Below, one piece after another: positions 27,093 through 63,926 of a stretch of 64,000 bases of DNA. The stretch is from IMG/VR virus record IMGVR_UViG_3300049979_000188; one strand, 5' to 3'. The notes under the pieces were generated by a model. That model had not been told where the DNA came from and made no database searches. It worked only from the letters and a program-made list of their open reading frames with translations. Made by a program: the position numbers and the translations under genes. The DNA comes from a virus. Numbering within the stretch: position 1 is the stretch's first letter; each line of letters begins with the position of its first letter.

Positions 27093-27216
27093 CTTACGAA
27101 AAACCCTGGCTCAAAAAAAGTCAGGGTTTTTTACGCCTCAGCGTAACCTTTCCTCCGGGCTGGGCGTAAAAGGACATGTAAGCGGCAACGGAGCGGCTTA
27201 CCTTACTCCTGCTGCA

Positions 27217-27555
27217 ATGGCTAAAGCTGCACAACCTAAATTTTTCACGCGTAGGGCGGCTGTCAACCCGGGCTTGCCTACTGCTAAACGCCACGTAGAC
27301 TACCTGGTTAAAGCCGCCACTCAGGCACGGGCACTGGCCTTACTGGAGCTGGTTAAAGTCCCTGGGCGCGGGCATAGTCTATATTATACCAACGCCCGTG
27401 AGTTTCGACTCTACTGGGTTACGCGCTCGACTGCGGAGGCCGATGCATCCATGCTTGAGTTGAGCTGTGATGCGCTCGAAGGTATCTGGTGGAAGCCGGA
27501 TATGGACCCGGACAGTGAGTATGTGTGCCTGTGGTATACTCCCATTACGGAATAA
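27217..27555 (+). CDS. Hypothetical cassette protein
   Basis: Own promoter and AACGGA leader. Confidence 0.8.
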   Translation: MAKAAQPKFFTRRAAVNPGLPTAKRHVDYLVKAATQARALALLELVKVPGRGHSLYYTNAREFRLYWVTRSTAEADASMLELSCDALEGIWWKPDMDPDSEYVCLWYTPITE

Positions 27556-27574
27556 ACATCCTTCGCTTACTCTT

Positions 27575-28093
27575 ATGCAAGACCCGAATTTTCAAACCCA
27601 CACACTGGCTGATAATAATCAAACCCTGGGCGCGCTGCGTAAGCTGCTCAATGAGCTAGCTGAGAAAGACCCATCCCTGGATGAGCTTAAGCTATGGCAA
27701 GGGACGGACTCGGGTGAGGGCTACCTGCGCCTGTGTACGGTTACGGTGGCCAACGCCCGCCACGTAGACTACGACGGCGACGATGCCGATGATGAAATGT
27801 TCTGCGTAGAGCCCGACGAGGAAGGACACCGGGAGGCTGATATGGGGCCTGGCTACGTACACCGAGAGCTTGACCGCCAGGGGAACCTTAACGGTTATAA
27901 GAACGTGCTGGTGCTCGGCGACCACCGCACCCCGCTTGACATTGCGCAGGCAATCACCAGCGAGCAGGAACGCCTGGCGAAACAAGCAGCTGAAAAAGAA
28001 GCGAAGGCCAAACGTGAGGCGCTTAAAAACGACCCCGAGTACCAACGCCTGCAAAAAGAGGCCAAGGAAGCACGTAAAAAATATGGTCTGTAA
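27575..28093 (+). CDS. Hypothetical protein, acidic centre and basic C-terminal helix
   Basis: Second cistron; start reset to MQDPNF. Confidence 0.75.
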   Translation: MQDPNFQTHTLADNNQTLGALRKLLNELAEKDPSLDELKLWQGTDSGEGYLRLCTVTVANARHVDYDGDDADDEMFCVEPDEEGHREADMGPGYVHRELDRQGNLNGYKNVLVLGDHRTPLDIAQAITSEQERLAKQAAEKEAKAKREALKNDPEYQRLQKEAKEARKKYGL

Positions 28094-28152
28094 GTGTAAC
28101 CTTTTCCCAGGGACCTGCGTAAAAGAACTCAGAAACCAACCTCCCCTTTCTC

Positions 28153-28545
28153 ATGGCCAAGCACCTGGAACCCGTCCCCTACGAATCGTTAATCGGCAAA
28201 CGCGTGCGCGTCTACCGCAACCTGCACAACTACGGCGGGGAGCACAAGGTCTTGTACTCGGTGCAGCACAAAGGGCTCGTGATTGCCCACGTACCGCAAA
28301 TTACCCTGGATGAGGTGAGCTTCTCAGTGCAGCCCGCTGGCCAGGCCAAGGTACGCCAAACCAAACGCAAGCAGGTCCACGCCTTTGTCAACGGAGTCGT
28401 GGCGGCACCCGGTCACGCCCTGGTGCGCAAGGTGAGCTACAACCCGTATCAGACCGATACCTTCGTGCTGGCCGGGCCGCTGGGCCAGGTGCCCGTGCTC
28501 GCGGCCGGGCGCATCAACATTACCCAGGTCGGGCTTTTTATTTAA
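28153..28545 (+). CDS. Conserved phage hypothetical protein
   Basis: Own promoter, AGAAACCAAC leader; RVRVYRNLH...KQVHAFVNG...SYNPY motif. Confidence 0.85.
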   Translation: MAKHLEPVPYESLIGKRVRVYRNLHNYGGEHKVLYSVQHKGLVIAHVPQITLDEVSFSVQPAGQAKVRQTKRKQVHAFVNGVVAAPGHALVRKVSYNPYQTDTFVLAGPLGQVPVLAAGRINITQVGLFI

Positions 28546-28636
28546 AAAAAGATTGCCCCGGCGTGTAACCTTACCGCCGGGGCCTGCGTAAAAGAACCAT
28601 CAACGGCAACGGAGCCGGGTCTCAGCTACTTTCTTC

Positions 28637-29536
28637 ATGTCTACTACCACGCAGCTTAAGCAGCTACAAGCTGAAATTGCGCTCTTACAAAATGTGCGTA
28701 ACTCGACTGAATACGTAGCATTAGAAGCAGAAATCCAGCAGCTACAAGGCCGCCTAAGGCAGGCAAAGCAGAATTACCAGGCAAGCGTAGCCGATGAAAT
28801 TGCGGCCAAGGAATCGGACATTAAGGCCCTTAAGATGCAGCAGCTTCGGGAAACCAATCCGGCTTTCCAATACTCCATACCGCTATTAAGTTGGTTTAAC
28901 CGGTGGGGACGTGGCATAGATTGGGGTCAGGGTGGGGTTCGCCTGCGCTGGGTATCCCCGAATCAAAACTGGGTGATTATCACCGCAGGTGGCGGTACGG
29001 CTGGACAAGGCACCCCAATGGGTACGGGTGCCTACTACTATGCGGCGGCGACGCACTATCTTTACCGGGTAGTAGATGGAGCTACGCACATGAACTCCAC
29101 GTCCAAATATCAGTTTTCCTTTGAGGGGCGGTTACTCAAGGCTACGAAAGAGGAATGGATAGCCTTTGCCCTCATCCAGGACGAGGGTTGCCCCTTCACG
29201 GAGAACCTGGACCGTTCAACACATGGCGGCTACCGGGTTGGAGACTACGTCTTTAACGAGATGCGTAGAACCTACGGTTTCATTTGGGAGCTGAATAACT
29301 ACCAACATAAGCCCACGGTTAGCTTCCGCGATGACCCATATTATAACCGTCCTATCGGCTACCCACTGGAACGAGTTGAAACGGTCCTACGCCTGGCTAA
29401 GCGCGTAGAGGAAATGGACTATCAAGGGATGTTTGACCTCGTCTCACCCGATGACAACCCGGCTAACCAGGCGCTGCGAGAAGTCCCCCCGACCTCTCCC
29501 CTACCCGACAAGAGCCTGGAAGGGTTTTTACTATAA
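28637..29536 (+). CDS. Hypothetical cassette protein with N-terminal coiled coil
   Basis: Own promoter and AACGGA leader; AT-richer codons. Confidence 0.85.
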   Translation: MSTTTQLKQLQAEIALLQNVRNSTEYVALEAEIQQLQGRLRQAKQNYQASVADEIAAKESDIKALKMQQLRETNPAFQYSIPLLSWFNRWGRGIDWGQGGVRLRWVSPNQNWVIITAGGGTAGQGTPMGTGAYYYAAATHYLYRVVDGATHMNSTSKYQFSFEGRLLKATKEEWIAFALIQDEGCPFTENLDRSTHGGYRVGDYVFNEMRRTYGFIWELNNYQHKPTVSFRDDPYYNRPIGYPLERVETVLRLAKRVEEMDYQGMFDLVSPDDNPANQALREVPPTSPLPDKSLEGFLL

Positions 29537-29634
29537 GGAGCAAAAGAATTTTTATTTTTACGTAACCTTTCCCGCCAGCCCGGCGTAAAAGGACCAGCAA
29601 CGGCAACGGAGCCGGGGCTTAACCAACCAGTATC

Positions 29635-30423
29635 ATGCGTACGATTGAAGAGGCAATTGCCAACCTGCTAAAAGAGAATACGGGTAGCCCAATGGGTGAC
29701 CATGCTGGCTACGCGGGCGGGCGACACTGGGAGAAAAACCAGGGTCGTAACTTTGCCTCGCAGCCCAGCTTTGTGGTGGAGGGCTACACCCGTGGGGAAA
29801 CGGACGAGGCAGGCTGGGCACCCATTCAAAACAGTGACCTGGGCTTTACCATCAATGTCTATCACTACTTGGTTAGCCGGCTGCGGGTGACTTCGGAAAG
29901 TGAAAACGAAAATGCCCTGCTGCAAACCCTGCTGCAAGCGGACCCCGACGACTTGTACGAAATCGGCTACATGCAGCAGTTTGCCACCAGCCGCAACACG
30001 GATACGGATAACTACTGCATCTGGCTGAGCCCGCTCAACACCTACAACGGCGAGTGCCTGCTGAGCCAGACGCTGCAATTCAGCATCTACGACCACGAGG
30101 GCACCAGCTTTATCGTGCTACAAATCCACGGCGGGGCCGACGTGCGCGGTGGCTATACCACGCCCCAGGTATTCGAGATTGCCAATGACGAGCGCGATGG
30201 GTTCGTGACGGGCTATATCGGCGTAGACGCTACGGCTCAGGTAGACGGCGAAACCGTACGCTGGAACTCGGAGAGCGGCTACGGCGGCTCGTTTAGGGCC
30301 GTAGACGACTCGGACGACGTGGAGGTACCCGAACTGGAACTTGAATGGCACGCCGAAACCAACACCTTCCGCCTGGCCCAAACCCACGAGGCCGTAAGCT
30401 TCTACCCCGAGTATAGCCTCTAA
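29635..30423 (+). CDS. Hypothetical acidic cassette protein
   Basis: Own promoter and AACGGA leader; LQIHGGADVRGGYT motif. Confidence 0.85.
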   Translation: MRTIEEAIANLLKENTGSPMGDHAGYAGGRHWEKNQGRNFASQPSFVVEGYTRGETDEAGWAPIQNSDLGFTINVYHYLVSRLRVTSESENENALLQTLLQADPDDLYEIGYMQQFATSRNTDTDNYCIWLSPLNTYNGECLLSQTLQFSIYDHEGTSFIVLQIHGGADVRGGYTTPQVFEIANDERDGFVTGYIGVDATAQVDGETVRWNSESGYGGSFRAVDDSDDVEVPELELEWHAETNTFRLAQTHEAVSFYPEYSL

Positions 30424-30549
30424 GCTACTAAAAAACCCTGACCCTAAAAAAGTCAGGGTTTTTTTCTATGAAGATGTAACCTTTCCCAGGGCTCTGCGTA
30501 AAAGGACATGTAAGCAGCAACGGAGCTGCTCACGCTAAAGACCCTTACC

Positions 30550-31077
30550 ATGTCTCACATCATTCGCTACCGCATTAGCCCGGCCCACTTGCTAGCTGAA
30601 CAAGCTTATAGCGCCACCTACCAAGGCAGACAACATGAACTGGCTACTGAAGTAAACCCGGCTTACCCACTGCTGGCTATTGGCTCGGGGGATACACCCG
30701 AGGATGCATACCAGTCGGCAGTTGGCCAAATCGACGGCATGGAGGATGCCCAAGGCGAGCATTTTGCTTATTCAAAACTACCCAAAGCTGGGCCTAAACG
30801 TATCGTAGGTAAAAACGAACTGCTGTCTCCCGAAGAAGCCGTAGCAACGCAATATTTTGTCTTGATTCGTTTCGCCTTGAGTGGGGGTGACGAAACGGAA
30901 AAGTCATATACGGTTAAGGTGCGCTTGACTGGGGGTCGTTGGAGCCGGTTTGCCTGGCGCATTGCTAAAGAAAAGGTAGAGGATGCGCTGGCGCATTTAC
31001 GTAAGACGCTCGGACCCCACGAGACGAAGGTGCTCGAAATAAAAGGCCCCGTGCTTGAACGTCCTACGTGGTACTAA
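30550..31077 (+). CDS. Hypothetical cassette protein
   Basis: Own promoter and AACGGA leader. Confidence 0.85.
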   Translation: MSHIIRYRISPAHLLAEQAYSATYQGRQHELATEVNPAYPLLAIGSGDTPEDAYQSAVGQIDGMEDAQGEHFAYSKLPKAGPKRIVGKNELLSPEEAVATQYFVLIRFALSGGDETEKSYTVKVRLTGGRWSRFAWRIAKEKVEDALAHLRKTLGPHETKVLEIKGPVLERPTWY

Positions 31078-31168
31078 TTTTTTTCACTTGAAACGTAACC
31101 TTTCTCCCAGCTCCGCGTAAAAGGACATGTAAAGCGCAACGGAGCACTTTACGCTAACGACCCCTACC

Positions 31169-31933
31169 ATGAAAAGCATTGAGAAGTACAAGTTCAGTGG
31201 CCTGACCATCAAAATCAAACAGGACACGGACCCCAGCAACCCGCGCAAAGAGTTTGACAACGTGGGCACACTGGTATGCTGGCACCGCAATTATGAGCTG
31301 GGCGACGAGCCCGAGTTTGGTGGGGGCCGCCGGGGTTTGCCGAGCCTGGACGCGGGTGAGTACCGCCTGGCGATGGCCGAAGTATACGACCCCGGCATTA
31401 GCGACTGGACGGATACGGCCATGAGCCGGTTGTGGGATAAAGCCCAGGCCGCTTCGAGCAGCAGCATTGGCGTGCTCACCGATGCCGAAATGCGGGCATA
31501 CGAGCTAGCGGAGTTGGAACTGCGCCAGCGGGTAGGGGAGCGGGTGCAGCGCGTACTGGATACGCACTACATCGTGCTGCCGGTCTACCTCTACGACCAT
31601 TCCGGCCTGGCCATGCGGGTAGCTGACTTTGGGGACCGTTGGGACTCGGGCCAGGTGGGCTTTATCTACTGCACCCGTGAGAAGGCCCTGCGCGAATGGG
31701 GCAACGGCGGGCTGGTGCTGAGTAAGAAACGCCGCCAGCAAGCCGTTACCTACCTGACGGGGGAAATCGAGACGTACCACGAGTACCTCAGCGGGCAGGT
31801 ATACGGCTACGAAATCAAGCGCAAGGGCGAAGGCGTGATTGACTCGTGCTGGGGCTTCTACGGCGGGGTAGACTACGTGAAAACCGAAGCCGAAGCAGCG
31901 GCTGCCTGCCTGGTAGAAACCGTTGAAGCATAA
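31169..31933 (+). CDS. Conserved phage hypothetical protein
   Basis: Own promoter and leader; LPVYLYDHSG, WDSGQVGFIY, YLSGQVYGY, DSCWGFYG. Confidence 0.85.
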   Translation: MKSIEKYKFSGLTIKIKQDTDPSNPRKEFDNVGTLVCWHRNYELGDEPEFGGGRRGLPSLDAGEYRLAMAEVYDPGISDWTDTAMSRLWDKAQAASSSSIGVLTDAEMRAYELAELELRQRVGERVQRVLDTHYIVLPVYLYDHSGLAMRVADFGDRWDSGQVGFIYCTREKALREWGNGGLVLSKKRRQQAVTYLTGEIETYHEYLSGQVYGYEIKRKGEGVIDSCWGFYGGVDYVKTEAEAAAACLVETVEA

Positions 31934-32039
31934 GGGCAATGGACCCCGCCCTAACCAGCGGGGTCTTTTTTTTGTTATTTTGTAACCTTTTCCCAGGGCT
32001 CGCCGTAAAAGGACTATCAACCAACTACTCACCCCTACC

Positions 32040-32498
32040 ATGCAAGTAACTACCACCGCCACACTGTGTGTCTTTCGTGATGCCCGAGGTAACGTGCAGA
32101 CCCGTGTACTAGCTGACTTCTACGACAACATCTGCCTAGATGGCTACGATGCCCAAGGTGTCCGCCAGTCGTATGACGACGAGGCCCGCCACATTGGGGA
32201 ATGGCTTGAAAAGCACCCCAGCCTGAACTACAAGAGCCAGGAGATAGCCGTTGTGGCCGACGTGAAGCTGCCCCGTCGGTTTGCCGATGGGGCCCTGGTG
32301 CAGCACCACGGGCTGGACGTGACGGTGATAAACTACCAAGAGGAAGCGGAGCAGTACGTGGTGGAAGTACCCGCTTATGAGGTATTCGATTTTACGGTAA
32401 AACTCAAGAACGGTCAGCCGCGCCCGGTACTGCGCGTGGAGCCAGCCAGTCAATACAAAGCACCCGAGGCCGAGCTTAACTACCCTGAAAAATACTAG
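32040..32498 (+). CDS. Hypothetical cassette protein
   Basis: Own promoter, ATCAACCAAC leader. Confidence 0.85.
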   Translation: MQVTTTATLCVFRDARGNVQTRVLADFYDNICLDGYDAQGVRQSYDDEARHIGEWLEKHPSLNYKSQEIAVVADVKLPRRFADGALVQHHGLDVTVINYQEEAEQYVVEVPAYEVFDFTVKLKNGQPRPVLRVEPASQYKAPEAELNYPEKY

Positions 32499-32590
32499 TA
32501 AAATTACGGCGAGCCTTGTAACCTTTCCCCAGGGCTCGCCGTAAAAGGACTATCAACGGCAACGGAGCCGCTTAACTAACCCCCGCTAGT

Positions 32591-33415
32591 ATGTACACCA
32601 TCCAGCAACTCACCCTCGACCAGCAAAGCCAGGCCGGTGGGCGTCAAGTACGCGTCACCTTTGCCAACGGCCAGACCTATACCGTAGCCGATGCGGGCGG
32701 GGACTACTGCTTCCAGAACCTAGCGTACTCGCTCACGGCCGAGACGCTCAACGAGAACACGGCCTTGCGCGAGGCCCTTACGGCCGTGGGTGAGTTTTAC
32801 CGCTTCTGGCTCAGCGGCAACGAGGACCCGATGGTGCTCATGCTGCGCAAGGATACCCCGGTGCTGCACGAGCTCTACGAAAGCGAGGAAACGAATAACA
32901 CGCCGGAGCAAGCGGCGGACCCTGCGCCTGGCAAAGACTATCCGTACGCCCTGGCTTGTTCTATCTTCACCACGCATAAAGACCCTGATTTGGTGGAGCG
33001 GGCACTCATTTACGAAGATGATGCGGTAGCCTTATTACGCGCAATCCGCCAGGCCGGGCTCTCGGATGCGCTTCCCGTCATCCTTGGCACGGGGGCTGAG
33101 TCGATTGAGCTAAGCATGAATGAGAAAGGGTTCTACTTCCTGACCCAAGTAGATACTACGCCTGATTCGGAGGACAAGCTTTACGCCGATGTACGGCGCT
33201 TTTGGCTGCGCCGCAAGACCGAGCCCGTGCAAGACGTGATAACGCTGGAAATTGGCGAATTTGCCGCCCTGGTGAACCGCATTAGCAAACTACGTGGCAC
33301 ACGCTCGTATCACCCCGGTGAAGATATTGAGCTTCCCATTGCGGGCGTCTTCCTAGTCAAGCGCGAGCACGCGGTAAACACCAAGCCCAAGCTCTACCGC
33401 ACCGGCTTGATTTAA
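32591..33415 (+). CDS. Hypothetical cassette protein
   Basis: Own promoter and AACGGA leader. Confidence 0.85.
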   Translation: MYTIQQLTLDQQSQAGGRQVRVTFANGQTYTVADAGGDYCFQNLAYSLTAETLNENTALREALTAVGEFYRFWLSGNEDPMVLMLRKDTPVLHELYESEETNNTPEQAADPAPGKDYPYALACSIFTTHKDPDLVERALIYEDDAVALLRAIRQAGLSDALPVILGTGAESIELSMNEKGFYFLTQVDTTPDSEDKLYADVRRFWLRRKTEPVQDVITLEIGEFAALVNRISKLRGTRSYHPGEDIELPIAGVFLVKREHAVNTKPKLYRTGLI

Positions 33416-33539
33416 GTAGTGAAACCCTGACTCCTAAAAAAAGTCAGGGTTTTTTTCTGTAAAGTTGTAACCTTCTCCCCGAGCCTGTCGTAAAAGGACA
33501 TGTAAAGCGCAACGGAGCACTTTACTAACCCTAAGCGGT

Positions 33540-34049
33540 ATGTTTAACGTTAGAACCACCACCCTGGCCAAGCGCACCCGTAATGTACTGGCCCACCTGC
33601 CGGGCTACCAGCGCCGCCAGCGCTTCGACATTACGCTGGACCTGCACCAAATCGGTGAGCAGTCCCCCTACTTCTCGGCCACGGTGAGCGGCCGCTCCTT
33701 CGGGGGCTGCAACCACGAGCTCATCCTCCGGCACTGGCCCCAGGCTAAATGCATCGTGGACCTGCACTTGTGCGACATGGACGGGGCACCCATGCACACG
33801 GAGGCCAACGCCCTCTACCACGCCCAGGCCTACCTCCACCAGCAAAAGGCCCATTACCCAGCCGCCAAGGGGCTCGACTACCTGGCTTCGCACCTACGCA
33901 TCAGCCAGGACCAGGCCCTGGACCTACTGGCTGACCTGGTAGACAAAACCCCCGACGTGCAGGCCCTGCTCATGAAGGCCTTTTGCGACCAGCAGCGCCC
34001 CCGCTGGCAGCAGGAGGCTGACCAGGCCCTGGCCTTCCTCAACGCCTAA
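33540..34049 (+). CDS. Conserved phage hypothetical protein
   Basis: Own promoter and leader; GGCNHE...LHLCDMDGAPMH...NALYH motif. Confidence 0.85.
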   Translation: MFNVRTTTLAKRTRNVLAHLPGYQRRQRFDITLDLHQIGEQSPYFSATVSGRSFGGCNHELILRHWPQAKCIVDLHLCDMDGAPMHTEANALYHAQAYLHQQKAHYPAAKGLDYLASHLRISQDQALDLLADLVDKTPDVQALLMKAFCDQQRPRWQQEADQALAFLNA

Positions 34050-34564: not shown

Positions 34565-34567
34565 GTT

Positions 34568-35631: not shown

Positions 35632-35655
35632 TTCACCCGCTTTTCCCTTTACTAC

Positions 35656-35706
35656 ATGAAGTTCGCCCGAATCCGCGCTACCCGCACTACCAAGATTAAA
35701 CGCTAA
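35656..35706 (+). CDS. 16-aa basic micropeptide MKFARIRATRTTKIKR
   Basis: Hand-translated; pyrimidine-rich leader, followed by a family terminator; paralog at 37850. Confidence 0.65.
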   Translation: MKFARIRATRTTKIKR

Positions 35707-37783: not shown

Positions 37784-37849
37784 ATTATTCGGGTAAAGGT
37801 AACCCCAGCTTTTTTTTCTTCGTATACTACCTCACCAACCTTCTTTCAC

Positions 37850-37897
37850 ATGGCTAAGATTAAAGCAACCAAAACCACCAAGACGCGCAAGCGCTAA
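37850..37897 (+). CDS. 15-aa basic micropeptide MAKIKATKTTKTRKR
   Basis: Hand-translated; only ORF between the class-B promoter at 37799 and the terminator at 37910. Confidence 0.7.
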   Translation: MAKIKATKTTKTRKR

Positions 37898-39048: not shown

Positions 39049-39090
39049 CAACTTGCCCGGGGCAACGGAGCCCCGGGCTACTATTTTTCC

Positions 39091-39426
39091 ATGAAAGATA
39101 CCCCCCGCATCCTGGCCACCTACGTGGCCCAGCGCATCGCCGAAAACGGTGACGTAGAAAACACGGGCAAGACCCAGGACTTCAACGTTACCAAAACCAT
39201 CCTCAATATGCCCGTGGCCGAGATTAAGGCCCTGGAAGACGACCAGTACGAAACCGATGCCTTGGTAGCCGAAGCCTCGCGCTGGGCGCGGGCACGCTCG
39301 CTTAAGCACCCCTTTGCCATCCGCGTGGAAGACGACCTGGCCCTGTTCTTCGAAGGGTTCGGCTGTAACCTGCTCACCCTCACCCAGGAGCAAGTGGACC
39401 GCATCCGCACGGAGCTCGGCTACTAA
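39091..39426 (+). CDS. Hypothetical protein
   Basis: Second cistron with its own AACGGA hairpin but no promoter. Confidence 0.85.
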   Translation: MKDTPRILATYVAQRIAENGDVENTGKTQDFNVTKTILNMPVAEIKALEDDQYETDALVAEASRWARARSLKHPFAIRVEDDLALFFEGFGCNLLTLTQEQVDRIRTELGY

Positions 39427-46875: not shown

Positions 46876-47163
46876 ATGAACGAGCACGCAACCCCCGACC
46901 TGACTAGTACGCGCATTGGCCAGGAACTACCCCTGCGGCACTTGCAAGGGGACGAGTACACCTACATCCAGAACGAGCAGGAGCTCGCCGCTACCGTAGC
47001 TGACGTGAGCGAAGACGTGCTGGCTAAGCACATCAAGGCCTACGAGAATGATACCATCACTGGGGCAATGGTGAAGGTGGGTGAGGGCTGGTACGACCAA
47101 ATCTGGCTCACCACGGATAGCGCGCCCTATCATTTAGCCTCACTTTATACCCGCGCCCTGTAA
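46876..47163 (+). CDS. Hypothetical cassette protein
   Basis: Own promoter, AGAAACCAC leader. Confidence 0.85.
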   Translation: MNEHATPDLTSTRIGQELPLRHLQGDEYTYIQNEQELAATVADVSEDVLAKHIKAYENDTITGAMVKVGEGWYDQIWLTTDSAPYHLASLYTRAL

Positions 47164-47267
47164 CCCACCCGGTTCTTTTTACGTATACAGACCATAACCA
47201 ACCCGCCCGTGTTTCTTTCGAGAGGCACGGGCCGGCTTGTCAGTACCCACTTCATTTTCTTACTGAC

Positions 47268-47564
47268 ATGACCGACCAACTCCAACTCCTGACCCTTGTA
47301 CCGCGCCAGTTTTACCTGCGCGAAGACACCCGCTACGCCTACGGCAAAGACGGGAGCGACCGCGAGCCCCTCACGCCCCAGCAGGCCCAGGAGCGCGTGC
47401 AAGAGGCCCTGCTGGCCCAGGACGTGAGCCTGCAAGACGTGGCCCCGTTCCTGGGTGCGCTGCTGGTGGGCACGCCCGCCGAGCTCCTGCTGGAAGAGTC
47501 CTACCCCCGCGCCAGCTGCGACTGCTGCAACGACCATGTAAAAGTTTTTTTGGTTGTGGTGTAA
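47268..47564 (+). CDS. Hypothetical protein with C-terminal SCDCC motif
   Basis: Class-B promoter at 47160, long leader with UUCG hairpin. Confidence 0.8.
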   Translation: MTDQLQLLTLVPRQFYLREDTRYAYGKDGSDREPLTPQQAQERVQEALLAQDVSLQDVAPFLGALLVGTPAELLLEESYPRASCDCCNDHVKVFLVVV

Positions 47565-56010: not shown

Positions 56011-56076
56011 AGAAAAAAAGCCGCCTAACCAGCGGCTTTTTTGTAACTTTCTCCCCTAGCCCTGCGTAAAAGGACC

Positions 56077-56658
56077 ATGAACCGCACCACTCCCCACCGC
56101 GTCACGCCCACGAGCCGCCTGCCCAAGCAGGGCGTGCTCCCGGCCCGAATCTACAACCAGGAAAAGCTGGCCGAATGGTACCGAGCTTGCGGGGCTATGC
56201 GCGGGGACGACCGTGAGCCCGTGCTGAGTACGTACGTATTTTGCAGCTTTCGCACGGGCAAGCCCTACGCCAGCGGCTACATTGCCTTTTTCAACGGCAC
56301 GGCCAGCCGCCACCGCCGCCTGAGCGACGCGCTGGCTATGCTCGTGCAACTGGAAGAGAACTACCATCTCTACTTTGCCACCAAGCAGCGGCGGCTGCAA
56401 GACCTGAGCTTTGACCCCAAAACCCGCGAGCAAACCGACCGGGAATTGCAAGCTGCCATTGACGGGGAAGAAAACGGGTGGAGCGACCTACTACGCTACC
56501 AGCGCGAGCAACACCCCGAGGGCAAGCTCGGGGGCTGGCGTGGCGACAAGGAACGGGCGGCCCGGGCCCGTGCCAACCGCAAGGAGGAACCCGTCCGTAT
56601 CGGCCGCCACAAGCCCGGTACCTGGATAGACCAGGATGGACACTTTCGCCAACTATAA
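56077..56658 (+). CDS. Hypothetical basic protein, leaderless
   Basis: ATG directly after CGTAAAAGGACC. Confidence 0.8.
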   Translation: MNRTTPHRVTPTSRLPKQGVLPARIYNQEKLAEWYRACGAMRGDDREPVLSTYVFCSFRTGKPYASGYIAFFNGTASRHRRLSDALAMLVQLEENYHLYFATKQRRLQDLSFDPKTREQTDRELQAAIDGEENGWSDLLRYQREQHPEGKLGGWRGDKERAARARANRKEEPVRIGRHKPGTWIDQDGHFRQL

Positions 56659-56739
56659 AAGAGAACCCCGACCCTAAAAAAGTCGGGGTTTTTCTTACGT
56701 AAATGTAACCTTTTCCCAGGGTTCGGCGTAAAAGGACGC

Positions 56740-57363
56740 ATGAAGCACGAGCTGACAACCCCCGAGAGTCTCAACGCCCACATTGATACGCTAGTCGAAC
56801 TGGTGCAGGTGCTGCCCCTGACGGGCGTGAGCATCCTGACCGGCGGCAACGGCCGGGGCAAGAGCCTGGTGCGCCAGCAACTGGTGCACCCCACCAAAAA
56901 GGCCGGCCTACGCCTGGCCTCCACGTCGCTGGAAAAGCGCACCAGCAGCAACCCCGACCTGGGTTGCCTGAGCGGCATGAACCGCGACCTGGCCTGGCTG
57001 CCGAGCTCGGTGGCCACCCTCGACCAGGTAGAGGGCGTGCTTAAGGCCCGCTACGGCGTGCCCACCTACGTGGTAATTGACGAGCCCGAGCTGGGCATGG
57101 GCGAGGAAACGGTGCTGGCCCTGGGCACCTACCTCACGCAGCTGCTGGCCGAGCGGCCCGAGGCCATCGTGGGCGTGCTCATTATCACGCATAGCCGCCA
57201 GCTCGTGGCCTCACTGGCCTACGACAACTTCTACAACCTGGACGGGTACGAAACCGCCCAGCAGTGGCTCACGCGCCCCGTAGTGGCCGCCGACCTGGCC
57301 GCCCTGCGCCTGAACGCGCTGAGCGATGCGATTCAGGCCCGCAGCCGCCAGGTAGAAATGTAA
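56740..57363 (+). CDS. Small P-loop ATPase (ABC/AAA_21-like), leaderless
   Basis: Walker A GGNGRGKS, Walker B VVIDEPELG, IITHS. Confidence 0.85.
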   Translation: MKHELTTPESLNAHIDTLVELVQVLPLTGVSILTGGNGRGKSLVRQQLVHPTKKAGLRLASTSLEKRTSSNPDLGCLSGMNRDLAWLPSSVATLDQVEGVLKARYGVPTYVVIDEPELGMGEETVLALGTYLTQLLAERPEAIVGVLIITHSRQLVASLAYDNFYNLDGYETAQQWLTRPVVAADLAALRLNALSDAIQARSRQVEM

Positions 57364-57457: not shown

Positions 57458-57733
57458 ATGGGACCATACGCCATCACCATCAACCGCAAGAAAGAGGTGG
57501 TAAACATTCCCTTCACTAAAACCATCGAAGATGGCCCGCTCACGGTGAAGCAACTGGCGAAAATAGCCGGGGAGCACCCCTTCGACGTAGAGCAGGATAA
57601 CTATGACCGCTACGTGGTCAAGGTCCACGCTACACGCCTGGAAACCGACCTGGAGCAAGCCGCACGCGTGGCTAAGGAAGAGGCGTATATGGTAGAGTAC
57701 AAGCGTCGGAAAAATAATCAGACGAAAGCGTAA
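57458..57733 (+). CDS. Hypothetical cassette protein
   Basis: Start reset to MGPYAI. Confidence 0.8.
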   Translation: MGPYAITINRKKEVVNIPFTKTIEDGPLTVKQLAKIAGEHPFDVEQDNYDRYVVKVHATRLETDLEQAARVAKEEAYMVEYKRRKNNQTKA

Positions 57734-57804
57734 CCTTTCCCCCGAGCCCTGCGTAAAAGGACAACCAGCGGGCTCAGTTGCCCGCTGGCTAACTCCCTCC
57801 CCCG

Positions 57805-57873
57805 ATGACTCAGCAACAAGCTGCCGACCTGGCCACCGCCAAGCTCGCGAAAAATAAATTGGTTTACATGTAA
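57805..57873 (+). CDS. 22-aa micropeptide MTQQQAADLATAKLAKNKLVYM
   Basis: Hand-translated; own promoter at 57730, 9-bp leader hairpin with loop TCAGTT; stop is in the next -35 box. Confidence 0.55.
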   Translation: MTQQQAADLATAKLAKNKLVYM

Positions 57874-57942
57874 CCTTGCCTAAGGCTAGCACGTAAAAGG
57901 AGTATTACCGGCAACGGAGCCCGTAATACTCCTTTCTAGCCC

Positions 57943-58209
57943 ATGAACCTCTCCCCCGCCCTGCCTGCTACCGGCTGCCTGACTACCCGCGCTTTTCACA
58001 AGCTGCAACAGGCCCACTACGACCAGGCCTGCGTCACGGCCCGCCAGAACCAGCAGCCAGCCCCCTACCAGTGGGACTACTTTTTCGGGAACCGCTTCAC
58101 CAATAAGCCCAAGCAAAACGGGTACGTGGCCTGGAGCCCGCGCAGCATCGTCCGCGCCCCGCAAAAGGAGCGGGCGCTCAACGCGATAAAGCCGCTGGGT
58201 ACCCGGTAA
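57943..58209 (+). CDS. Hypothetical cassette protein
   Basis: Own promoter and AACGGA leader. Confidence 0.8.
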   Translation: MNLSPALPATGCLTTRAFHKLQQAHYDQACVTARQNQQPAPYQWDYFFGNRFTNKPKQNGYVAWSPRSIVRAPQKERALNAIKPLGTR

Positions 58210-58296
58210 AAAAAGGAAAAAAAGTTGGTTGGTTTCTGTAACCTTTCCGCCAGCCCGGCGTAAAAGGATGTAGAAACCAACCAAACCCCTTTTCTC

Positions 58297-58872
58297 ATGT
58301 ACGAAACCCTTGCCGCCACCGCCCTCGCCGCCAACGCTAAAGAAGCCCTGGCCCACACCCTGACTAACGAGGCCCTGGTGGCCTTCCTTTTCGGGGGTAA
58401 GGCCATCTTCACCCTCTTTAACGAGCAGACGCTCACGCGCTACACCTACCTGGTCGAAAAAAAGGGGTTTGTCTTTCAGGATGCCACTACCGGGCGCGAC
58501 GTAAAGGGCACCCGCTACTGGGTTAACCTGCTCACCGGTCCCCATAATACGAAGGACTACACCTACCTGGGTTGCCTTAAAAACGAGACGGAACGCACCT
58601 TTACCCTCTCGCCTAAGTCCCGGGTAGGGGACGCGGATTTACCCAGCGTACAGGCCATTTCCTGGCTGCTCAAGCGCATCGAAGATTACGAAAAAGGCCA
58701 GCGGGAGGACGTAACGGGCGGCCCGCTCAAGTTCTACCACGCAGGCCGCTGCGGACGCTGTGGGGCGGCGCTAACGGTGCCCGAATCCATCGAAAACGGC
58801 CTCGGCCCTGAATGCACCAAGTACGTGGGCAAGGGCATCGAAAAAAAGGTGCGCCACAAACAGCTTAGCTAA
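58297..58872 (+). CDS. DUF6011-like Zn-finger protein
   Basis: GRCGRCGAALTVPESIENGLGPEC; AGAAACCAAC leader. Confidence 0.8.
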   Translation: MYETLAATALAANAKEALAHTLTNEALVAFLFGGKAIFTLFNEQTLTRYTYLVEKKGFVFQDATTGRDVKGTRYWVNLLTGPHNTKDYTYLGCLKNETERTFTLSPKSRVGDADLPSVQAISWLLKRIEDYEKGQREDVTGGPLKFYHAGRCGRCGAALTVPESIENGLGPECTKYVGKGIEKKVRHKQLS

Positions 58873-58993
58873 GTAAAAAAAGCCCCGACTACTCGGGGCT
58901 TTTTTTTTGTCTATCATGTAACCTTTCCCCAGGGCTCGACGTAAAAGGACATGTAAGCAGCAACGGAGCTGCTCACCCAACCCCTCCCCAACC

Positions 58994-59296
58994 ATGCGTA
59001 CCTTGTTCACCGCCGCCCTGCTGTTTGCCGCCACCTTCACCGCCTCGGCCGCTACGCCCCTCTCAACGCCCGAGCGCGAGGCCCTCACGCAAATTACGGT
59101 GCAGTACAAGCTCAGCGCCTGCCAGGCCCAGGACGTGCTCCCGCTCGTGCAAGCCTACGTGGCCCAGCGGGCCGAGCTCGTGGCCGCCATCTGTGGCCAG
59201 GGCAGCGAGGCCAGCCACCAGGCCCAGCTTAACGCCCTGCACGCCCGCTTTCAGCAGCGCCTGCACCAACTGCTCAAAGCTTGCCCCGAGCGCTAG
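58994..59296 (+). CDS. Small secreted helical protein
   Basis: Signal peptide MRTLFTAALLFAATFTASA-A. Confidence 0.8.
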   Translation: MRTLFTAALLFAATFTASAATPLSTPEREALTQITVQYKLSACQAQDVLPLVQAYVAQRAELVAAICGQGSEASHQAQLNALHARFQQRLHQLLKACPER

Positions 59297-59406
59297 GCAG
59301 CCGCCAGAAATACCCGCCTCATCAGCGGGTATTTTTTTAGGGTAAACGTAACCTTTGGGCCGGGCTCCGCGTAAAAGGAGGCAGAAACCAACTAACCCCT
59401 TTTTGT

Positions 59407-59763
59407 ATGTCAATCACTTCTGAGATGAGCCGCCTGGGCATACCCGGTAAAGAAAAGAGCACCACCAACGCCTGGGGCTTCGCCGGTTGGTCCGGCAAGG
59501 AATACCGGCTACCCAACGGGGCGCTGCTTTGCCAGGGACGCTACTTCTACCGCCACGCCAACCCCACCGCCTACCTGCGTCTCTACCTGCCCACGCCGGA
59601 GGGCGAGCAGCAGCCGAGCCCGCTAAGCAGCAAAACCAAAATACTGGCCTACCTGCAAGCCCTACCCGTGCCGGAGGCCGTCGTAGAGGCCCGCCTGCTG
59701 GCTGAGGCCATCGCCCTCACCAAGCCCGCCCGTCAGACGTTTACCCAGGGCCGGCTGTTCTAA
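59407..59763 (+). CDS. Hypothetical cassette protein
   Basis: Own promoter, AGAAACCAAC leader. Confidence 0.85.
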   Translation: MSITSEMSRLGIPGKEKSTTNAWGFAGWSGKEYRLPNGALLCQGRYFYRHANPTAYLRLYLPTPEGEQQPSPLSSKTKILAYLQALPVPEAVVEARLLAEAIALTKPARQTFTQGRLF

Positions 59764-59886
59764 CCACTAGCCCCGGCTTAAAAAATAAGTCGGGGTTTTT
59801 TTCTCCCCTAACGTAACCTTTCCCGCGAGTCCTGCGTAAAAGGACATGTAACCGCAACGGAGCGGTTGCCCTTACCTCTACCTGTT

Positions 59887-60270
59887 ATGCCTACTACCAT
59901 CGCTCAAATCCGCGCCCACAACACCCGCGTGGGCCACTGCTTCTTTAGCCGCCAAACCATGCGCATGTGGGGCAGCAAGGTGCTGGCCACCGTCAACCAG
60001 GGGCCGGGCGGCATCTACTTCGTCACCAGCGAAGACAACTACAACAAGACGCGTCGCGAGTTCAGCGTGCGCCGCTATGACCCCGAGACGGGCGACGTGC
60101 GCACCGCTTTCTACGGCAAGCCCTACGAGTCCAAACGTTACTCCACCCCGCAGCAGGCGCGCAGCGTGGCCACCATCCTGGCCCAGTTCGGGGAGCCCAC
60201 CACGGCCCCGGTGGAGCCGGAAGGGGAAAGCTACCCGCTGGGTCACATGCAAGGACGCGGGGCCGCCTAG
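59887..60270 (+). CDS. Conserved phage hypothetical protein
   Basis: Start reset to MPTTIAQ; HCFFSRQTMRMWGS...YFVTSE motif. Confidence 0.85.
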   Translation: MPTTIAQIRAHNTRVGHCFFSRQTMRMWGSKVLATVNQGPGGIYFVTSEDNYNKTRREFSVRRYDPETGDVRTAFYGKPYESKRYSTPQQARSVATILAQFGEPTTAPVEPEGESYPLGHMQGRGAA

Positions 60271-60394
60271 CCGCCTAAAAAACCCCATCAAAAAAAGATG
60301 GGGTTTTTTCTTCCTCGCTTGTAACCTTTCCCTACTCACCCCGTAAAAGGACTCACCAGCGGCAACGGAGCCGCTCGTAAATTTCCCTCTTCCT

Positions 60395-60736
60395 ATGGCA
60401 ACCACCACTGCCCCCGCCCCCACTACTACGGTCGATTTGCGCGACCTCGATGCCACGCTGGCCGTGCTCACCAAAGGGCTCAAGAAAAGCCGTAACTGCT
60501 TGGTGACGCGCTACGGCAACGAGCTGCTCGTCTACTTCTACAACACGGCCATTGCCAAGGTCGTAGGCGGGCAGCTTTTCCTCTTTAACGGCGGCTTTGA
60601 AACCGTCGTTACCAAGGACCGCCTTAACAAGGTGCTGGAGGTGCTGGGCTCCCCCATCCGCGTCTATAGCCAGAACTACGACTGGCACCTCTCGCCCCAG
60701 GGTACCCGGTTCCAAGAAGGGGTGCAGGTAGCGTAA
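60395..60736 (+). CDS. Conserved phage hypothetical protein
   Basis: Own promoter and leader; GGFETVVTKDRLN motif. Confidence 0.85.
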   Translation: MATTTAPAPTTTVDLRDLDATLAVLTKGLKKSRNCLVTRYGNELLVYFYNTAIAKVVGGQLFLFNGGFETVVTKDRLNKVLEVLGSPIRVYSQNYDWHLSPQGTRFQEGVQVA

Positions 60737-60785
60737 AAAAAGTCCCGGCCAGTAACGAACCGGGGCTTTTTTACGTAGCCTGGGC

Positions 60786-61202
60786 ATGTTTACTACTTCC
60801 ATCCCTTTCCCGGCCCTTACCCTGCTACGGCAGGCAGCCACGGCCGAGGGCGTGCCCGTTACGGCCTACACGCTCACCAGCCAGTTAATGGTTCTTAACA
60901 GCCTCGTAGACGCTGGCCTGGCCCAGGCTACCAGCAGCGACGGCAAGGCCGGCTACAAGGCAACAACTACTGGCCTGGCTGAGCTGGCCCGCCTCGACGT
61001 GCTACAGGATGGGGCAACGCTCATCAGCGCCACCGGCCCGGTAATGCCCGTAACAGCCCCGCCAGCCGCTCCCACGCCGCCGCCTACCCCTACGCCAGCC
61101 GCCGTAGTTACGGAAGGCGTAAACGAAGCGGACGAGGCACCCGGCGAAGAAGCCCCGGCCGCCGAGCAGGAATCGGATGAGCCCGAAGAGCCCACCAAGT
61201 AA
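60786..61202 (+). CDS. Hypothetical protein with Pro/acidic low-complexity tail, near-leaderless
   Basis: Class-B promoter at 60752. Confidence 0.8.
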   Translation: MFTTSIPFPALTLLRQAATAEGVPVTAYTLTSQLMVLNSLVDAGLAQATSSDGKAGYKATTTGLAELARLDVLQDGATLISATGPVMPVTAPPAAPTPPPTPTPAAVVTEGVNEADEAPGEEAPAAEQESDEPEEPTK

Positions 61203-61328
61203 CCCCCCTAAAAGCCCTGACGCAAAAAAAGTCAGGGCTTTTTTACGTCTAACTGTAACCTTTCCCCAGGGGTCCGCGTAAAAGGACTCATGCAGCGCAA
61301 CGGAGCGCTGCCCCTTTTACTACCCCCC

Positions 61329-61649
61329 ATGAAAAGTCTGGCCACCAAGACCCGCAACGCTATCACCAAGGAAATTAAAGAACTTGGTACTTACCACACG
61401 AGCGTACCAGTGACGGCTTTGCTTATGTCCTTGAAGCTGCACGGAGTGGTGGCCTTGGACGAAGACAATACCGAGTGGCGTGGCTTTGTAATGGGTGAGA
61501 ACAGCAGCACCATTCTGCGCCTAGCCGAGTTGTCCACCGCCTACCAGCACGCCAGCGGTGTAACGATGTACCAGCCCCTGCGTACGGCCCTGGCTTTGCA
61601 GTGGTACAAAATCAGCACCAAGTTTGAAATCAACGCGTACCTCAGCTAA
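61329..61649 (+). CDS. Hypothetical cassette protein
   Basis: Start reset to MKSLAT. Confidence 0.8.
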   Translation: MKSLATKTRNAITKEIKELGTYHTSVPVTALLMSLKLHGVVALDEDNTEWRGFVMGENSSTILRLAELSTAYQHASGVTMYQPLRTALALQWYKISTKFEINAYLS

Positions 61650-61768
61650 CCAGATTGGCCCCACGAAAATGGGGCCATCTTTTTTTCAGTTATTTCGTAA
61701 CCTTTTCCCAGGGCTCGCCGTAAAAGGAGTATGCAGCGCAACGGAGCACTGCTAAAAATTCCCCCAAT

Positions 61769-62242
61769 ATGTCAGCTACCACCACCGCCGCCCAAGACCA
61801 GCTCGCCGCTCAGCACCGCCAGGCCGCCCGCAACAACCAGACCTATACCGACCTGGCGGCCAAGCGTCTCAAGGGCCACGGCCTGACCCTGACGGACGGA
61901 GCCTATCAACAATCGGCTGAGGGCGTACTCAACAACCTACTCTACCGGGCCGTACGGGATGCAAACGCCGCCCACATGGCCGGTACCGACTGGATTGAAT
62001 CGTACGATGCCCCGCGCCCGGGCCTGCTGGCCGGAGTTGTAATCGCCCGCCTCTACAACGGGGTAGACGAAGTACTGCGCCAGCAAAAGCAATACAACGG
62101 CCAGCCCATGAAAATCGCCGAGCTCCAAAAGCTGCTCGACCTGCTGGCCCCACTGGCCGCCAGCCTGGACCCGCGCCAGGAAAGCATCGAGTCCACCCTG
62201 CGCGAAACCGAGTACCAAGCCAAGCTACGCAGCGAAGACTAA
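61769..62242 (+). CDS. Hypothetical helical cassette protein
   Basis: Own promoter and AACGGA leader. Confidence 0.85.
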   Translation: MSATTTAAQDQLAAQHRQAARNNQTYTDLAAKRLKGHGLTLTDGAYQQSAEGVLNNLLYRAVRDANAAHMAGTDWIESYDAPRPGLLAGVVIARLYNGVDEVLRQQKQYNGQPMKIAELQKLLDLLAPLAASLDPRQESIESTLRETEYQAKLRSED

Positions 62243-62368
62243 GTACCTACCAGCCCCGACCACTAAGTCGGGGCTTTTTTTTTATCTTTATACGTAACCT
62301 TTCCCAAAGGCTCCACGTATAAGGACCATGCCGCGCAACGGAGCCCGGCCCTCTTACTTTCCCCTACC

Positions 62369-63070
62369 ATGTTGTCTGCCGAAATCGCTACCGTTCGCCT
62401 CGCCCTGCTCGCTGCTGGCATTACCTCTACTACGGTACTAGCCAGCTATACCCACCTCACGCAGACCGAACAGCTACAAACTTACGAAGTAGCGGCCTGG
62501 TACACGCGTTACGAGTTGCCGGCCGGGCAAACCGTGCCCGTGTACGCGCAGCTAGAAGAGACCTACCGTAAGGGTATGCCCGCGCTCTTCTACTCGGCTA
62601 CGCTAGCCGCCGTGCAGGTCGAAGACCATTGCCCCAGCCTCTTTGGTGGCTGCCCTGTCCCTGGTAGTGCACCTAAAGTACCTACTGGTCCCGTCGCTAC
62701 TACGCGTACTATCGGCGGACACGGTACCCACTTCCCCCATTTTGCCGCTCAGCCAGGCGTGGTACTTACGCCCGAGGGCGAGCTGTTCCTGGCCCTGGTG
62801 CAACCCCTCTACGACGCGTATCTGGCCGACGTGGCGGCTCGCCAGGCGCGTATCGAGGCCCAGGCTGCCCTGGAGGCCCAACAGCTCCTGGAGGCGCGTA
62901 AACCGGCTTCTGGTGACCGTGTGCGGGTATACCATTGCGGCAAGGGTAGTAACGCCACGGTAGAGCGCTACGATGCGGGGTCTAAGTACTGCCACGTACG
63001 CACCGACCACGGCACTACTAGTATGCCCGATGTGATAAGCCTGGTTTACCTGGATGAGGTGCCCGCTTAA
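62369..63070 (+). CDS. Hypothetical cassette protein, possible C-terminal SH3/KOW-like fold
   Basis: Own promoter and leader; GDRVRVYH...ATVERYD...CHVRTD. Confidence 0.8.
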   Translation: MLSAEIATVRLALLAAGITSTTVLASYTHLTQTEQLQTYEVAAWYTRYELPAGQTVPVYAQLEETYRKGMPALFYSATLAAVQVEDHCPSLFGGCPVPGSAPKVPTGPVATTRTIGGHGTHFPHFAAQPGVVLTPEGELFLALVQPLYDAYLADVAARQARIEAQAALEAQQLLEARKPASGDRVRVYHCGKGSNATVERYDAGSKYCHVRTDHGTTSMPDVISLVYLDEVPA

Positions 63071-63163
63071 TTTTTTTTTACGTGGAGCCCGTAACCTTTT
63101 CTCAGGGCTCCACGTAAAAGGAGTATGCAGCGCAACGGAGCGCTCCTAAAAACCTCCTTTACC

Positions 63164-63445
63164 ATGTCAGTTACCACCACCACCAAAACCTGGGACCAAG
63201 CTTACAACGATTACGAGAACCTGCACCCCAACGGCCACGTAGGCTACGCCTACGAGCAACCCGGCGACAAGTGGCCCCTGGCCACCGTAGCCCTGCACAA
63301 TGCCACGCCCGAGGAAGCCGCCATCTGCGCCGAGGCCCTGGCCCACGGCGTGAACTGGGAGGCCTGGCCCGTCCACTTCACGCAGCTCAGCCACTGGGGC
63401 GGCGGCCCGCGCAAGAGCCCAACCAGCAACTACACCGGCAACTAA
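63164..63445 (+). CDS. Hypothetical cassette protein
   Basis: Start reset to MSVTT. Confidence 0.8.
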   Translation: MSVTTTTKTWDQAYNDYENLHPNGHVGYAYEQPGDKWPLATVALHNATPEEAAICAEALAHGVNWEAWPVHFTQLSHWGGGPRKSPTSNYTGN

Positions 63446-63563
63446 GAGAAGTCCCGACCCTAAAAAGTCGGGACTTTTTTATCTTTTTTTGTAACCTTAC
63501 GAGTGGACCCTGCGTATAAAGACCATGCAGCGCAACGGAGCGCCGCCCAAAACTACCACCACC

Positions 63564-63926
63564 ATGTCAGCTACTACCGCCGCCACTGCCGCCACCCCGC
63601 TCACCAACCAGTACGGTGAGGTACTTACCCTGAACCCGGCCCTGCTCGCTACCGTGCAGCAGATACCCGGTATCACCGTGCGCTTGCTCGGTGACTTGCT
63701 GCTGACCGACCTTATCAAGGCTACCCACCACGGCGCGCTGACCAATGCCAGTTCCTACCTAGAAGCCGACGTGCGCAGCCAGCAGTGGAAGACCATCCGC
63801 ACCTGGCTGGCTGCTGGCTCGATGGTGAGCTACTACTACGGCGAGCAGCTCGACGTGCTACTCGTTGACCACCGCCACGGCAAGGGCGGCCAGGCCTACA
63901 AAGGGTACAGCATGCTGAGCGCCTAA
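63564..63926 (+). CDS. Hypothetical cassette protein
   Basis: Start reset to MSATT. Confidence 0.8.
   Translation: MSATTAATAATPLTNQYGEVLTLNPALLATVQQIPGITVRLLGDLLLTDLIKATHHGALTNASSYLEADVRSQQWKTIRTWLAAGSMVSYYYGEQLDVLLVDHRHGKGGQAYKGYSMLSA

Follow-up and report, generated by a model that had tools for sequence, protein, structure and literature searches.

What transcribes a block of some 37 kb of viral DNA in which nearly every small gene stands behind its own copy of the same promoter, and what role do these repeated signals play? The question is raised by a stretch of 64,000 nucleotides (nt) from the IMG/VR virus record IMGVR_UViG_3300049979_000188, here called the window, which carries the block, here called the array, at positions 27098 to 63926. 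The interpretation that we favour, with a probability of about 0.62, is that the array is an accessory-gene block of an uncultured large Bacteroidota phage, dependent on a phage sigma factor at the end of a transcriptional cascade, and that the modules repeated between its genes can mediate the exchange of cassettes. The array, its promoters and its possible right border are the following:

27098..63926, + strand: array of 71 co-oriented small open reading frames (ORFs) in 62 promoter-led units (64 with the variant promoters)
Strict promoter starts, + strand, first set: 27143, 28096, 28565, 29562, 30476, 31095, 31982, 32518, 33467, 34097, 34969, 35759, 36325, 36810, 37342, 37954
Strict promoter starts, + strand, second set: 38699, 39445, 39997, 40332, 41081, 42354, 42853, 43392, 43992, 44685, 45146, 45958, 46362, 46818, 47561, 47944
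Strict promoter starts, + strand, third set: 48647, 49214, 49558, 50233, 50756, 51236, 51784, 52269, 52661, 52885, 53403, 53931, 54621, 54933, 55645, 56043
Strict promoter starts, + strand, fourth set: 56705, 57382, 57730, 57870, 58238, 58918, 59348, 59813, 60321, 61255, 61697, 62294, 63091, 63491
37799..37827, + strand: variant promoter GTAACCCC ... CGTATAC, preceding a 15-codon basic mini-ORF (37850-37897)
47160..47188, + strand: variant promoter GTAACCCA ... CGTATAC, preceding the ORF 47268-47564
63941..63972, + strand: 12-bp stem-loop past the last ORF, with no T run and with no later promoter in the window

A regular-expression scan of the window retrieved 62 strict copies of GTAACCTTT-N12/13-CGTAAAAGGA, all of them on the + strand between 27143 and 63491, with a mean spacing of 596 bp and the consensus TGTAACCTTT, 12–13 nt, CGTAAAAGGA. 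For a motif of this kind, a shuffle control gave a chance level of about 0.04 matches per window, and the - strand contained a single weak copy, at 1261. With the two variants (37799 and 47160) and a copy belonging to the sigma gene described below (25944), the total is 65, which agrees with the first-pass annotation of this DNA, where about 65 copies had been counted. The letters AAC in the -35 box and CGTA in the -10 box are invariant, a pattern which is the signature of promoters of extracytoplasmic function (ECF) sigma factors. Sites of the sigma70 type were not enriched (8 vs. 7.2 expected, and 6 vs. 4.7).

The array holds 71 ORFs on the + strand, coding for 22–299 amino acids (median 130), of which 62 have their own promoter and nine are second genes. 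Since an all-against-all blastp comparison yielded only three weak pairs, the ORFs can be considered unrelated to each other, and the earlier description of small, co-oriented, unrelated ORFs in units of one or two genes was correct. Two mini-ORFs, 35656-35706 (16 codons) and 37850-37897 (15 codons), encode similar, very basic peptides and are each located just 5′ of a terminator; one of the two sits behind a variant promoter. The stem-loop at 63941..63972 may mark the end of the array. An assembly artefact was considered for positions 61699-63986 and rejected, as an independent assembly from another sequencing run (L002) matched this stretch at 100% identity. This second assembly, a short-read one of the same phage, begins inside the promoter repeat at 61697; therefore, the repeated modules probably break short-read assemblies of such arrays.

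Concerning the factor that could read these promoters, the head of the array is occupied by the following gene:

26007..27092, + strand: P0001 gene, read as coding for a divergent ECF-like sigma factor of 361 amino acids, given its fold, a weak signal in the sequence and its presence together with the promoter

P0001 gave no Pfam match, even at E = 10, and a word-indexed protein search returned only the protein itself. An exhaustive HMMER search found eight homologues of 233–312 amino acids, which align to its residues 113–356. Among the nine members of this family, three match Sigma70_ECF weakly (best E = 0.0026) and two match Sigma70_r4_2. The sole match of the family profile in the PDB was region 4 of sigmaE (E = 0.25), and the protein-language-model look-alikes of P0001 include viral clusters of Sigma70_ECF and Sigma70_r2. 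The AlphaFold model used was built with a nine-row alignment and reached predicted local distance difference test (pLDDT) scores of 85–92 over residues 110–190 and 77–85 over 240–300, so that it can be trusted over residues 110–200 and 240–310; a single-sequence model with a pLDDT of 33.5 was not used. The model displays a two-domain sigma2–sigma4 fold lacking region 3, in which an N-terminal extension of about 110 residues is followed by sigma domain 2 (about 110–200), sigma domain 4 (about 235–310) and a conserved C-terminal tail. When it was run in Foldseek, nearly all the top 50 rows were sigma factors, mostly of the ECF type, and VIA re-alignment of the matches gave sigma factors in 50 of 50 rows, with Z up to 8.8. 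Sigma domain 4 was fitted with Z of 7.5–8.7 and a root-mean-square deviation of 1.7–3.6 Å. For helical proteins a Z near 8 is by itself middling, and the weight of this result lies in the uniformity of the match list. Each of these lines of evidence is weak alone; jointly, they give a clear reading of P0001 as a divergent ECF-like sigma factor.

The distribution of gene and promoter in other phages points in the same direction. Homologues of the sigma gene are present on nine contigs (L003, L004, L005/L006, L007/L008, L133, L135/L136 and L137) representing about six distinct uncultured phages, with 54–70% G+C and a sigma protein identity of 31–50%. All these contigs have the same promoter and blocks of small co-oriented ORFs. 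The promoters of the GTAACCTT class are found on the sigma gene and, wherever downstream sequence is present, on the genes after it, with at least 17 of them in the 10 kb past the sigma gene of L135. Upstream of the sigma gene the promoters belong to another ECF-like class, which differs from phage to phage; it is the downstream GTAACCTT class that is conserved. In the window, positions 1-25500 are served on both strands by a second ECF-like class, GTAACG, about 17 nt, CGTA-A/T-ACT (e.g. 22809, 24261, 25184 and 25436 on the + strand; 12381, 8539, 6375 and 2332 on the - strand). The proposal that a cognate ECF sigma factor heads the array is thus borne out by the fold, by the weak sequence signal and by the co-occurrence with the promoter in all the relatives found.

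The sigma gene is itself preceded by two promoters of different type:

25847..25877, + strand: Bacteroidota housekeeping-type (sigmaA) promoter 5′ of the sigma gene (TTG, about 19 nt, TAnnTTTG)
25944..25972, + strand: the sigma gene's own ECF-type promoter, GTAACCTTT ... CGTTAAAG, followed by an AGAAACCAAC leader

The TTG/TAnnTTTG element at 25847 is the sole composite match on the + strand of the window. In the window and on eight of the nine contigs with relatives (L003, L004, L005/L006, L007/L008, L135 and L137; L133 is the exception), an element of this kind lies 117–164 nt 5′ of the sigma start codon, with the ECF-type promoter 3′ of it. The arrangement of an ECF-type promoter and an AGAAACCAAC-type leader before the sigma gene is the same in all relatives. 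An ECF promoter on the gene of its own sigma factor is the usual pattern of ECF autoregulation. From these motifs we infer a cascade that would run from the host sigma to the phage sigma and from this to the array. Host RNA polymerase with its housekeeping sigma would start at the 25847 promoter and give rise to the ECF-like sigma factor, which would then read its own promoter and the approximately 64 promoters GTAACCTTT-N12/13-CGTAAAAGGA located downstream. Each of these would produce a short transcript with one or two ORFs, and about half of the units would be insulated from the next one by an intrinsic terminator. A conserved promoter of the host housekeeping type precedes the sigma gene, which makes expression of the array in a second wave (delayed-early or middle) more likely than immediate-early expression. 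The earlier suggestion that the cassettes are expressed early is, for the same reason, doubtful.

Such a cascade has precedents. In phiEco32 (gp36) and in Salmonella phage 7-11, transcription of an early gene for a phage sigma depends on the sigma of the host, and the phage sigma then reads a conserved phage-specific promoter of middle and late genes (PMC12276001, PMC8948821). The likeness, which consists of motif evidence only, is in the housekeeping-type promoter found before the sigma gene in the window and in eight of nine relatives' contigs. The differences are that those phages have enterobacterial hosts and far fewer promoters, whereas the phage studied here would be a Bacteroidota phage with a promoter equal to a host ECF class. 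Between gp36 and P0001 there is no detectable sequence homology, the link being one of fold only (9m7y_F, rank 37).

Translation in Bacteroidota is not led by Shine-Dalgarno sites, and the leaders of the array contain none. A search of 185,579 species genomes located the exact promoter string 34 times; 23 of these occurrences are in Bacteroidota species, one per genome. Because of these leaders, and of the enrichment of the exact string in Bacteroidota genomes, we infer a Bacteroidota host for this large, uncultured phage (contig of 202,851 bp). In five Flavobacteriales (L103, L106, L116, L122 and L132) the string is 33–35 nt 5′ of the primary sigma gene rpoD, and in six Bacteroidales (L099, L100, L110, L115, L121 and L123) it is 5′ of queA, which suggests a conserved host ECF-type promoter at these two genes. 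The phage promoter would then be a copy of a host ECF class. In Flavobacterium psychrophilum, an ECF-type class of promoters whose -10 region bears a CGT box, SM6, has been described (PMC9723704). The likeness to this Bacteroidota class is in the exact phage string 5′ of rpoD and queA, and the difference is in density, i.e. once or a few times per bacterial genome vs. 62 times in 37 kb.

These host promoters bring in another explanation, namely that a host ECF sigma factor, and not P0001, reads the array. The cassettes would then fire once the host ECF response is on, and P0001 would act elsewhere, e.g. as a decoy for an anti-sigma factor. The co-occurrence of the sigma-like gene and the GTAACCTT class in all relatives, with the class beginning at the sigma gene, is not what this explanation leads one to expect, nor is the presence of the same promoter type on the sigma gene, in the manner of ECF autoregulation, or of both DNA-reading domains in the P0001 model. 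It does fit the single copies in 23 Bacteroidota species, some of them directly 5′ of rpoD or queA, the existence of the SM6 class and the great divergence of P0001. All in all, we consider it unlikely. Transcription of the array by P0001, predicted from cognate-type AAC/CGT promoters that include the one on its own gene, as with ECF sigma factors (group 4), is preferred. Several points weigh against it. Bacteroidota hosts use the same promoter string, and the array could therefore be read by one of their ECF sigma factors in the absence of P0001. The latter passes no curated sigma model, the best E of its family being the 0.0026 mentioned above. The rest of the window is served by the GTAACG ... 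CGTA-A/T-ACT class, which makes the pairing of promoter classes with sigma factors provisional. Finally, transcription starts, timing and insulation by the terminators are predictions from the sequence.

In the searches for close relatives, the phage collection gave no match, a single exact copy of the promoter and no relative of the sigma were retrieved from IMG/VR, and a scan of JGI metagenomes returned 90 stretches with one match each, none of them an array. The phage promoter is present in two exact copies on JBAZIW010000001.1 (362,763 bp; L113, L118), a contig filed as a Candidatus Paceibacterota genome bin, which may be a jumbo phage wrongly assigned to a bacterial bin. The metagenome contig Ga0265297_10000074 (L063, L067), also of 362,763 bp, has two promoter matches as well.

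Concerning the way in which cassettes are joined, the anatomy of a complete junction is exemplified by:

30428..30549, + strand: representative full junction, with terminator hairpin and T run, spacer, promoter, AACGGA hairpin and C/A-rich linker, followed by the ATG at 30550

An intrinsic terminator (stem-loop plus T run) was found 5′ of 29 of the 62 promoters. The count was made with a scan of our own, because the built-in one, limited to loops of 3–8 nt, undercounts in an array where many terminators have 9-nt loops. At the 29 terminator junctions, the gap from stop codon to promoter is 44–58 nt, with one exception of 32 nt (56043); the junctions without terminator have no hairpin and a gap mostly of 25 nt or less. 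So, terminators precede about half of the cassettes and not most of them, as had been stated initially. On the other hand, the junction anatomy confirms a standard terminator-promoter-leader module linking self-contained cassettes. The module, which runs from the terminator through spacer and promoter to the leader, is about 120 nt long and homologous between junctions. Approximately 15–17 terminators share a near-identical stem and an A-rich loop, and the best module pairs reach up to 89% identity over about 120 nt despite being 21 kb apart (33467 vs. 54621). There are 78 distinct repeated 30-mers, the longest exact direct repeat being of 44 nt. Neighbouring modules are no more alike than modules far apart in the array (similarity of 0.639 at lag 1 vs. 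0.640 overall; permutation p = 0.55). In view of this lack of a neighbour effect, an origin of the modules by local tandem duplication was rejected. Judging from their sequences, the modules would be homologous copies giving each cassette identical expression signals.

The comparison with relatives shows that gene order is not fixed. Of 17 array genes of L135, eight have homologues in the window array, with 40–56% identity. Four of these are collinear (34151, 34568, 36880 and 41156), with three and nine extra cassettes between them in the window; at another place, L135 has one extra cassette and the window has none. A further three (28153, 32591 and 33540) are transposed to the other side of the collinear block, in changed order. 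The homologue of 34568 has its own leaderless-type promoter in L135, L005, L006 and L007, and none in the window; in L003, the shared genes are upstream of the sigma gene. The dispersion of G+C content at third codon positions, with a standard deviation of 0.103 among array ORFs vs. about 0.039 for the binomial expectation and 0.042 for the neighbouring gene block, fits mixed origins of the array ORFs. All this fits the cassettes being the apparent units of turnover. Hence, of the earlier idea that cassettes are shuffled at the junctions, the turnover part stands, as scattered shared cassettes and the gain, loss and reordering of whole cassettes are seen between relatives; recombination exactly at junctions is not demonstrable with relatives only 31–50% identical in the sigma protein.

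The mechanism proposed is that the direct repeats of the modules, exact over up to 44 nt, would allow homologous recombination to delete, duplicate and swap whole cassettes. Repeats of this kind, co-oriented, exact over 25–44 nt and recurring every 600 bp, are well suited to phage recombinases, as has been shown with the promoter-early stem-loop (PeSL) elements of other phages (PMC2839356). In addition, modules of distant junctions are near-identical in parts with no obvious functional need for it, e.g. the exact stem and loop of the terminators, the spacer that follows the T run, and a mismatch repeated within one hairpin family. This argues against the modules being expression signals only, with turnover by illegitimate recombination or transfer at any place and selection keeping whole genes. 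Functional constraint on promoter, terminator and leader would, for its part, explain much of the module similarity. Moreover, the relatives are too distant for breakpoint placement and no breakpoint was mapped, the two near-identical contig pairs, L005/L006 and L135/L136, do not differ in their cassettes, and the array proteins compared at 90% identity, the ten largest, are all singletons; the first two of these observations also detract from the exchange mechanism that we prefer. An array of mere expression signals is a possibility to be kept in mind, though a rather doubtful one.

The conserved imperfect hairpins present at each cassette boundary could also recall an integron-like system, in which they would be the sites of a site-specific recombinase. 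No integrase or other recombinase family was found among the 35 neighbouring and 70 array proteins, and the hairpin is part of the 5′ leader, its distance to the ATG being fixed. Furthermore, each array cassette has its own promoter, whereas integron cassettes are promoterless, end in attC and have the integrase adjacent. This possibility seems very remote, and module-mediated homologous recombination continues to be the preferred mechanism.

With respect to the leaders, each array promoter has an ORF-opening ATG at a fixed distance downstream, and two standard leaders would take the place of Shine-Dalgarno sites: a hairpin with an invariant AACGGA loop and the unstructured AGAAACCAAC. The first type occurs in 47 units, with the ATG 43–51 nt past the -10 block, and the second, or a close variant of it, in 11 units, with the ATG at 25–33 nt. 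Units 51236 and 57730 have leaders with other hairpins, and two units (56043 and 56705) are apparently leaderless, with the ATG 5–6 nt past the -10 block, a geometry found also in the relatives L005, L006, L007 and L135. The exceptional elements are:

56043..56658, + strand: apparently leaderless unit, ATG 5 nt past the -10 block, with no hairpin
56705..57363, + strand: second apparently leaderless unit, encoding a 207-aa P-loop ATPase-like protein
39055..39078, + strand: promoterless AACGGA-loop hairpin inside an operon, 27 nt 5′ of the start codon at 39091

The AACGGA-loop hairpin is present in 48 copies, in which the loop and the two closing pairs are essentially invariant. In the 48 loop-aligned copies, 83% of the cells are paired vs. 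57% in shuffles and 25–39% with the partner slid, and compensatory changes on both sides are seen in eight of nine pairs, so that the covarying leader hairpin reported at first is real. Its stems belong to a few families with several copies each, one of which repeats the same mismatch. The hairpin starts 27–36 nt 5′ of the ATG (29–31 nt in most copies) and would probably begin within a few nt of the 5′ end of the transcript. Since the copy at 39055-39078 has no promoter, the position of the hairpin tracks the start codon and not only the promoter.

The hairpin matched no Rfam family, and the matches of a covariance model were confined to the array, with nothing convincing in 40 other loci (best E = 0.022). 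At the model threshold, neither the rest of the window nor the relatives contain the motif of the 48 array leaders; a few similar leader hairpins, with AACGA-type loops, occur in the relatives. The 48-copy hairpin is a new RNA motif and the most unusual element of the array. We propose, tentatively and with much less confidence than the main reading, that it may be a phage-private mRNA tag, which would be read by a phage factor (RNA-binding protein or nuclease) or by the Shine-Dalgarno-independent ribosome of Bacteroidota. If this were so, one post-transcriptional control could activate, stabilise or silence the accessory arsenal as a whole, and the junction module would be a standard part of three layers, i.e. 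termination, sigma-specific initiation and tagged translation. The binding partner of the hairpin could be sought.

Other features of the leaders can be mentioned. In 23 of the 62 leaders there is an ATG 2–6 nt past the -10 block, at about the expected transcription start (e.g. 30507, 31126, 39479 and 50790). This upstream ATG is followed by an immediate stop codon (start-stop) in 12 cases and is in frame with the main ORF in five, where the hairpin sequence would code for an extension of the N-terminus. In the public annotation, the gene 63525-63926 starts at such an upstream leader ATG. The unit 57730-57873, with a promoter, a distinct 10-bp hairpin (57765-57788), a 22-codon ORF and then the next promoter, may be a small RNA unit. 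The window gave no Rfam match at gathering thresholds and contains no tRNAs.

Concerning the content of the cassettes, four of 70 array proteins have a Pfam match (L5 gp82, DUF7447, DUF6011 and Kyanoviridae gp96), in all cases to phage families of unknown function. The same is true of the 17 PHROG families matched, and NCBIfam matched 0 of 70. The array includes one small P-loop ATPase-like ORF and two ORFs with signal peptides. PADLOC produced weak matches of one or a few array proteins to five models (best HEC-01A, E = 1.8e-06), perhaps due to the P-loop protein, and these matches give no assignment to defence or anti-defence. By analogy with T4 and other phages, a role of the array in host takeover or anti-defence is plausible.

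It had been claimed that no comparable combination is known, which is too strong, because PeSL cassettes and phage sigma regulons cover the concept. In the T4-type phages RB49, phi1, PST and nt-1, the PeSLs are composite terminator and promoter motifs, about 50 per genome, concentrated in hyperplastic regions and mostly directly 5′ of ORFans, and modular shuffling of the intervening genes has been proposed and partly shown (PMC2839356, PMC4122927). The array likewise has 62 repeated promoters, 29 of them with an upstream stem-loop and T run at a fixed distance, and its genes are mostly ORFan-like, as judged from the Pfam and NCBIfam results and from the ten singletons. The differences are that PeSL promoters are early ones of the host sigma70, while those of the array are of the ECF type (AAC ... 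CGTA) with a phage sigma gene at their head; that the 62 copies form one uninterrupted, co-oriented 37-kb block; and that the module includes a standard 5′ leader (hairpin or AGAAACCAAC). In addition, mini-circles and junction-bounded indels have been shown for PeSLs, whereas the array is known from sequence and from distant relatives only. The array represents no new kind of system. It exemplifies, at very large size, two strategies that phages are known to use, an own sigma factor and PeSL-type cassettes, and differs from the known systems in promoter type, host phylum, density (62 in 37 kb) and built-in leaders.

To our knowledge, transcription in Bacteroidota phages is almost unstudied. 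The region offers a model, readable from its sequence, of the control of accessory genes in large phages of this phylum, and it extends the PeSL idea of regulatory cassettes as recombination handles to another promoter class and another phage lineage. In practical terms, it supplies natural, mutually similar promoters and terminators and two leader types for Bacteroidota, together with a list of 71 candidate host-interaction proteins.

Some observations concern the DNA to the left of the array. The 9-nt word GACATTGTT, with its one-mismatch variants, occurs in about 10 intergenic copies, in both orientations, between 22676 and 25250, at the point where leftward and rightward gene blocks diverge; there are 16 matches in the whole window vs. 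7.9 expected, and the cluster could be an operator or iteron array. The left block, of leftward genes, codes for a LAGLIDADG homing endonuclease (2-940, - strand), at least one HNH endonuclease, MazG-like and HD phosphohydrolases and a cREC_REC domain protein, and within its ORFs exact duplications in tandem are seen at 18598-18681 (42 nt) and 15783-15824 (21 nt).

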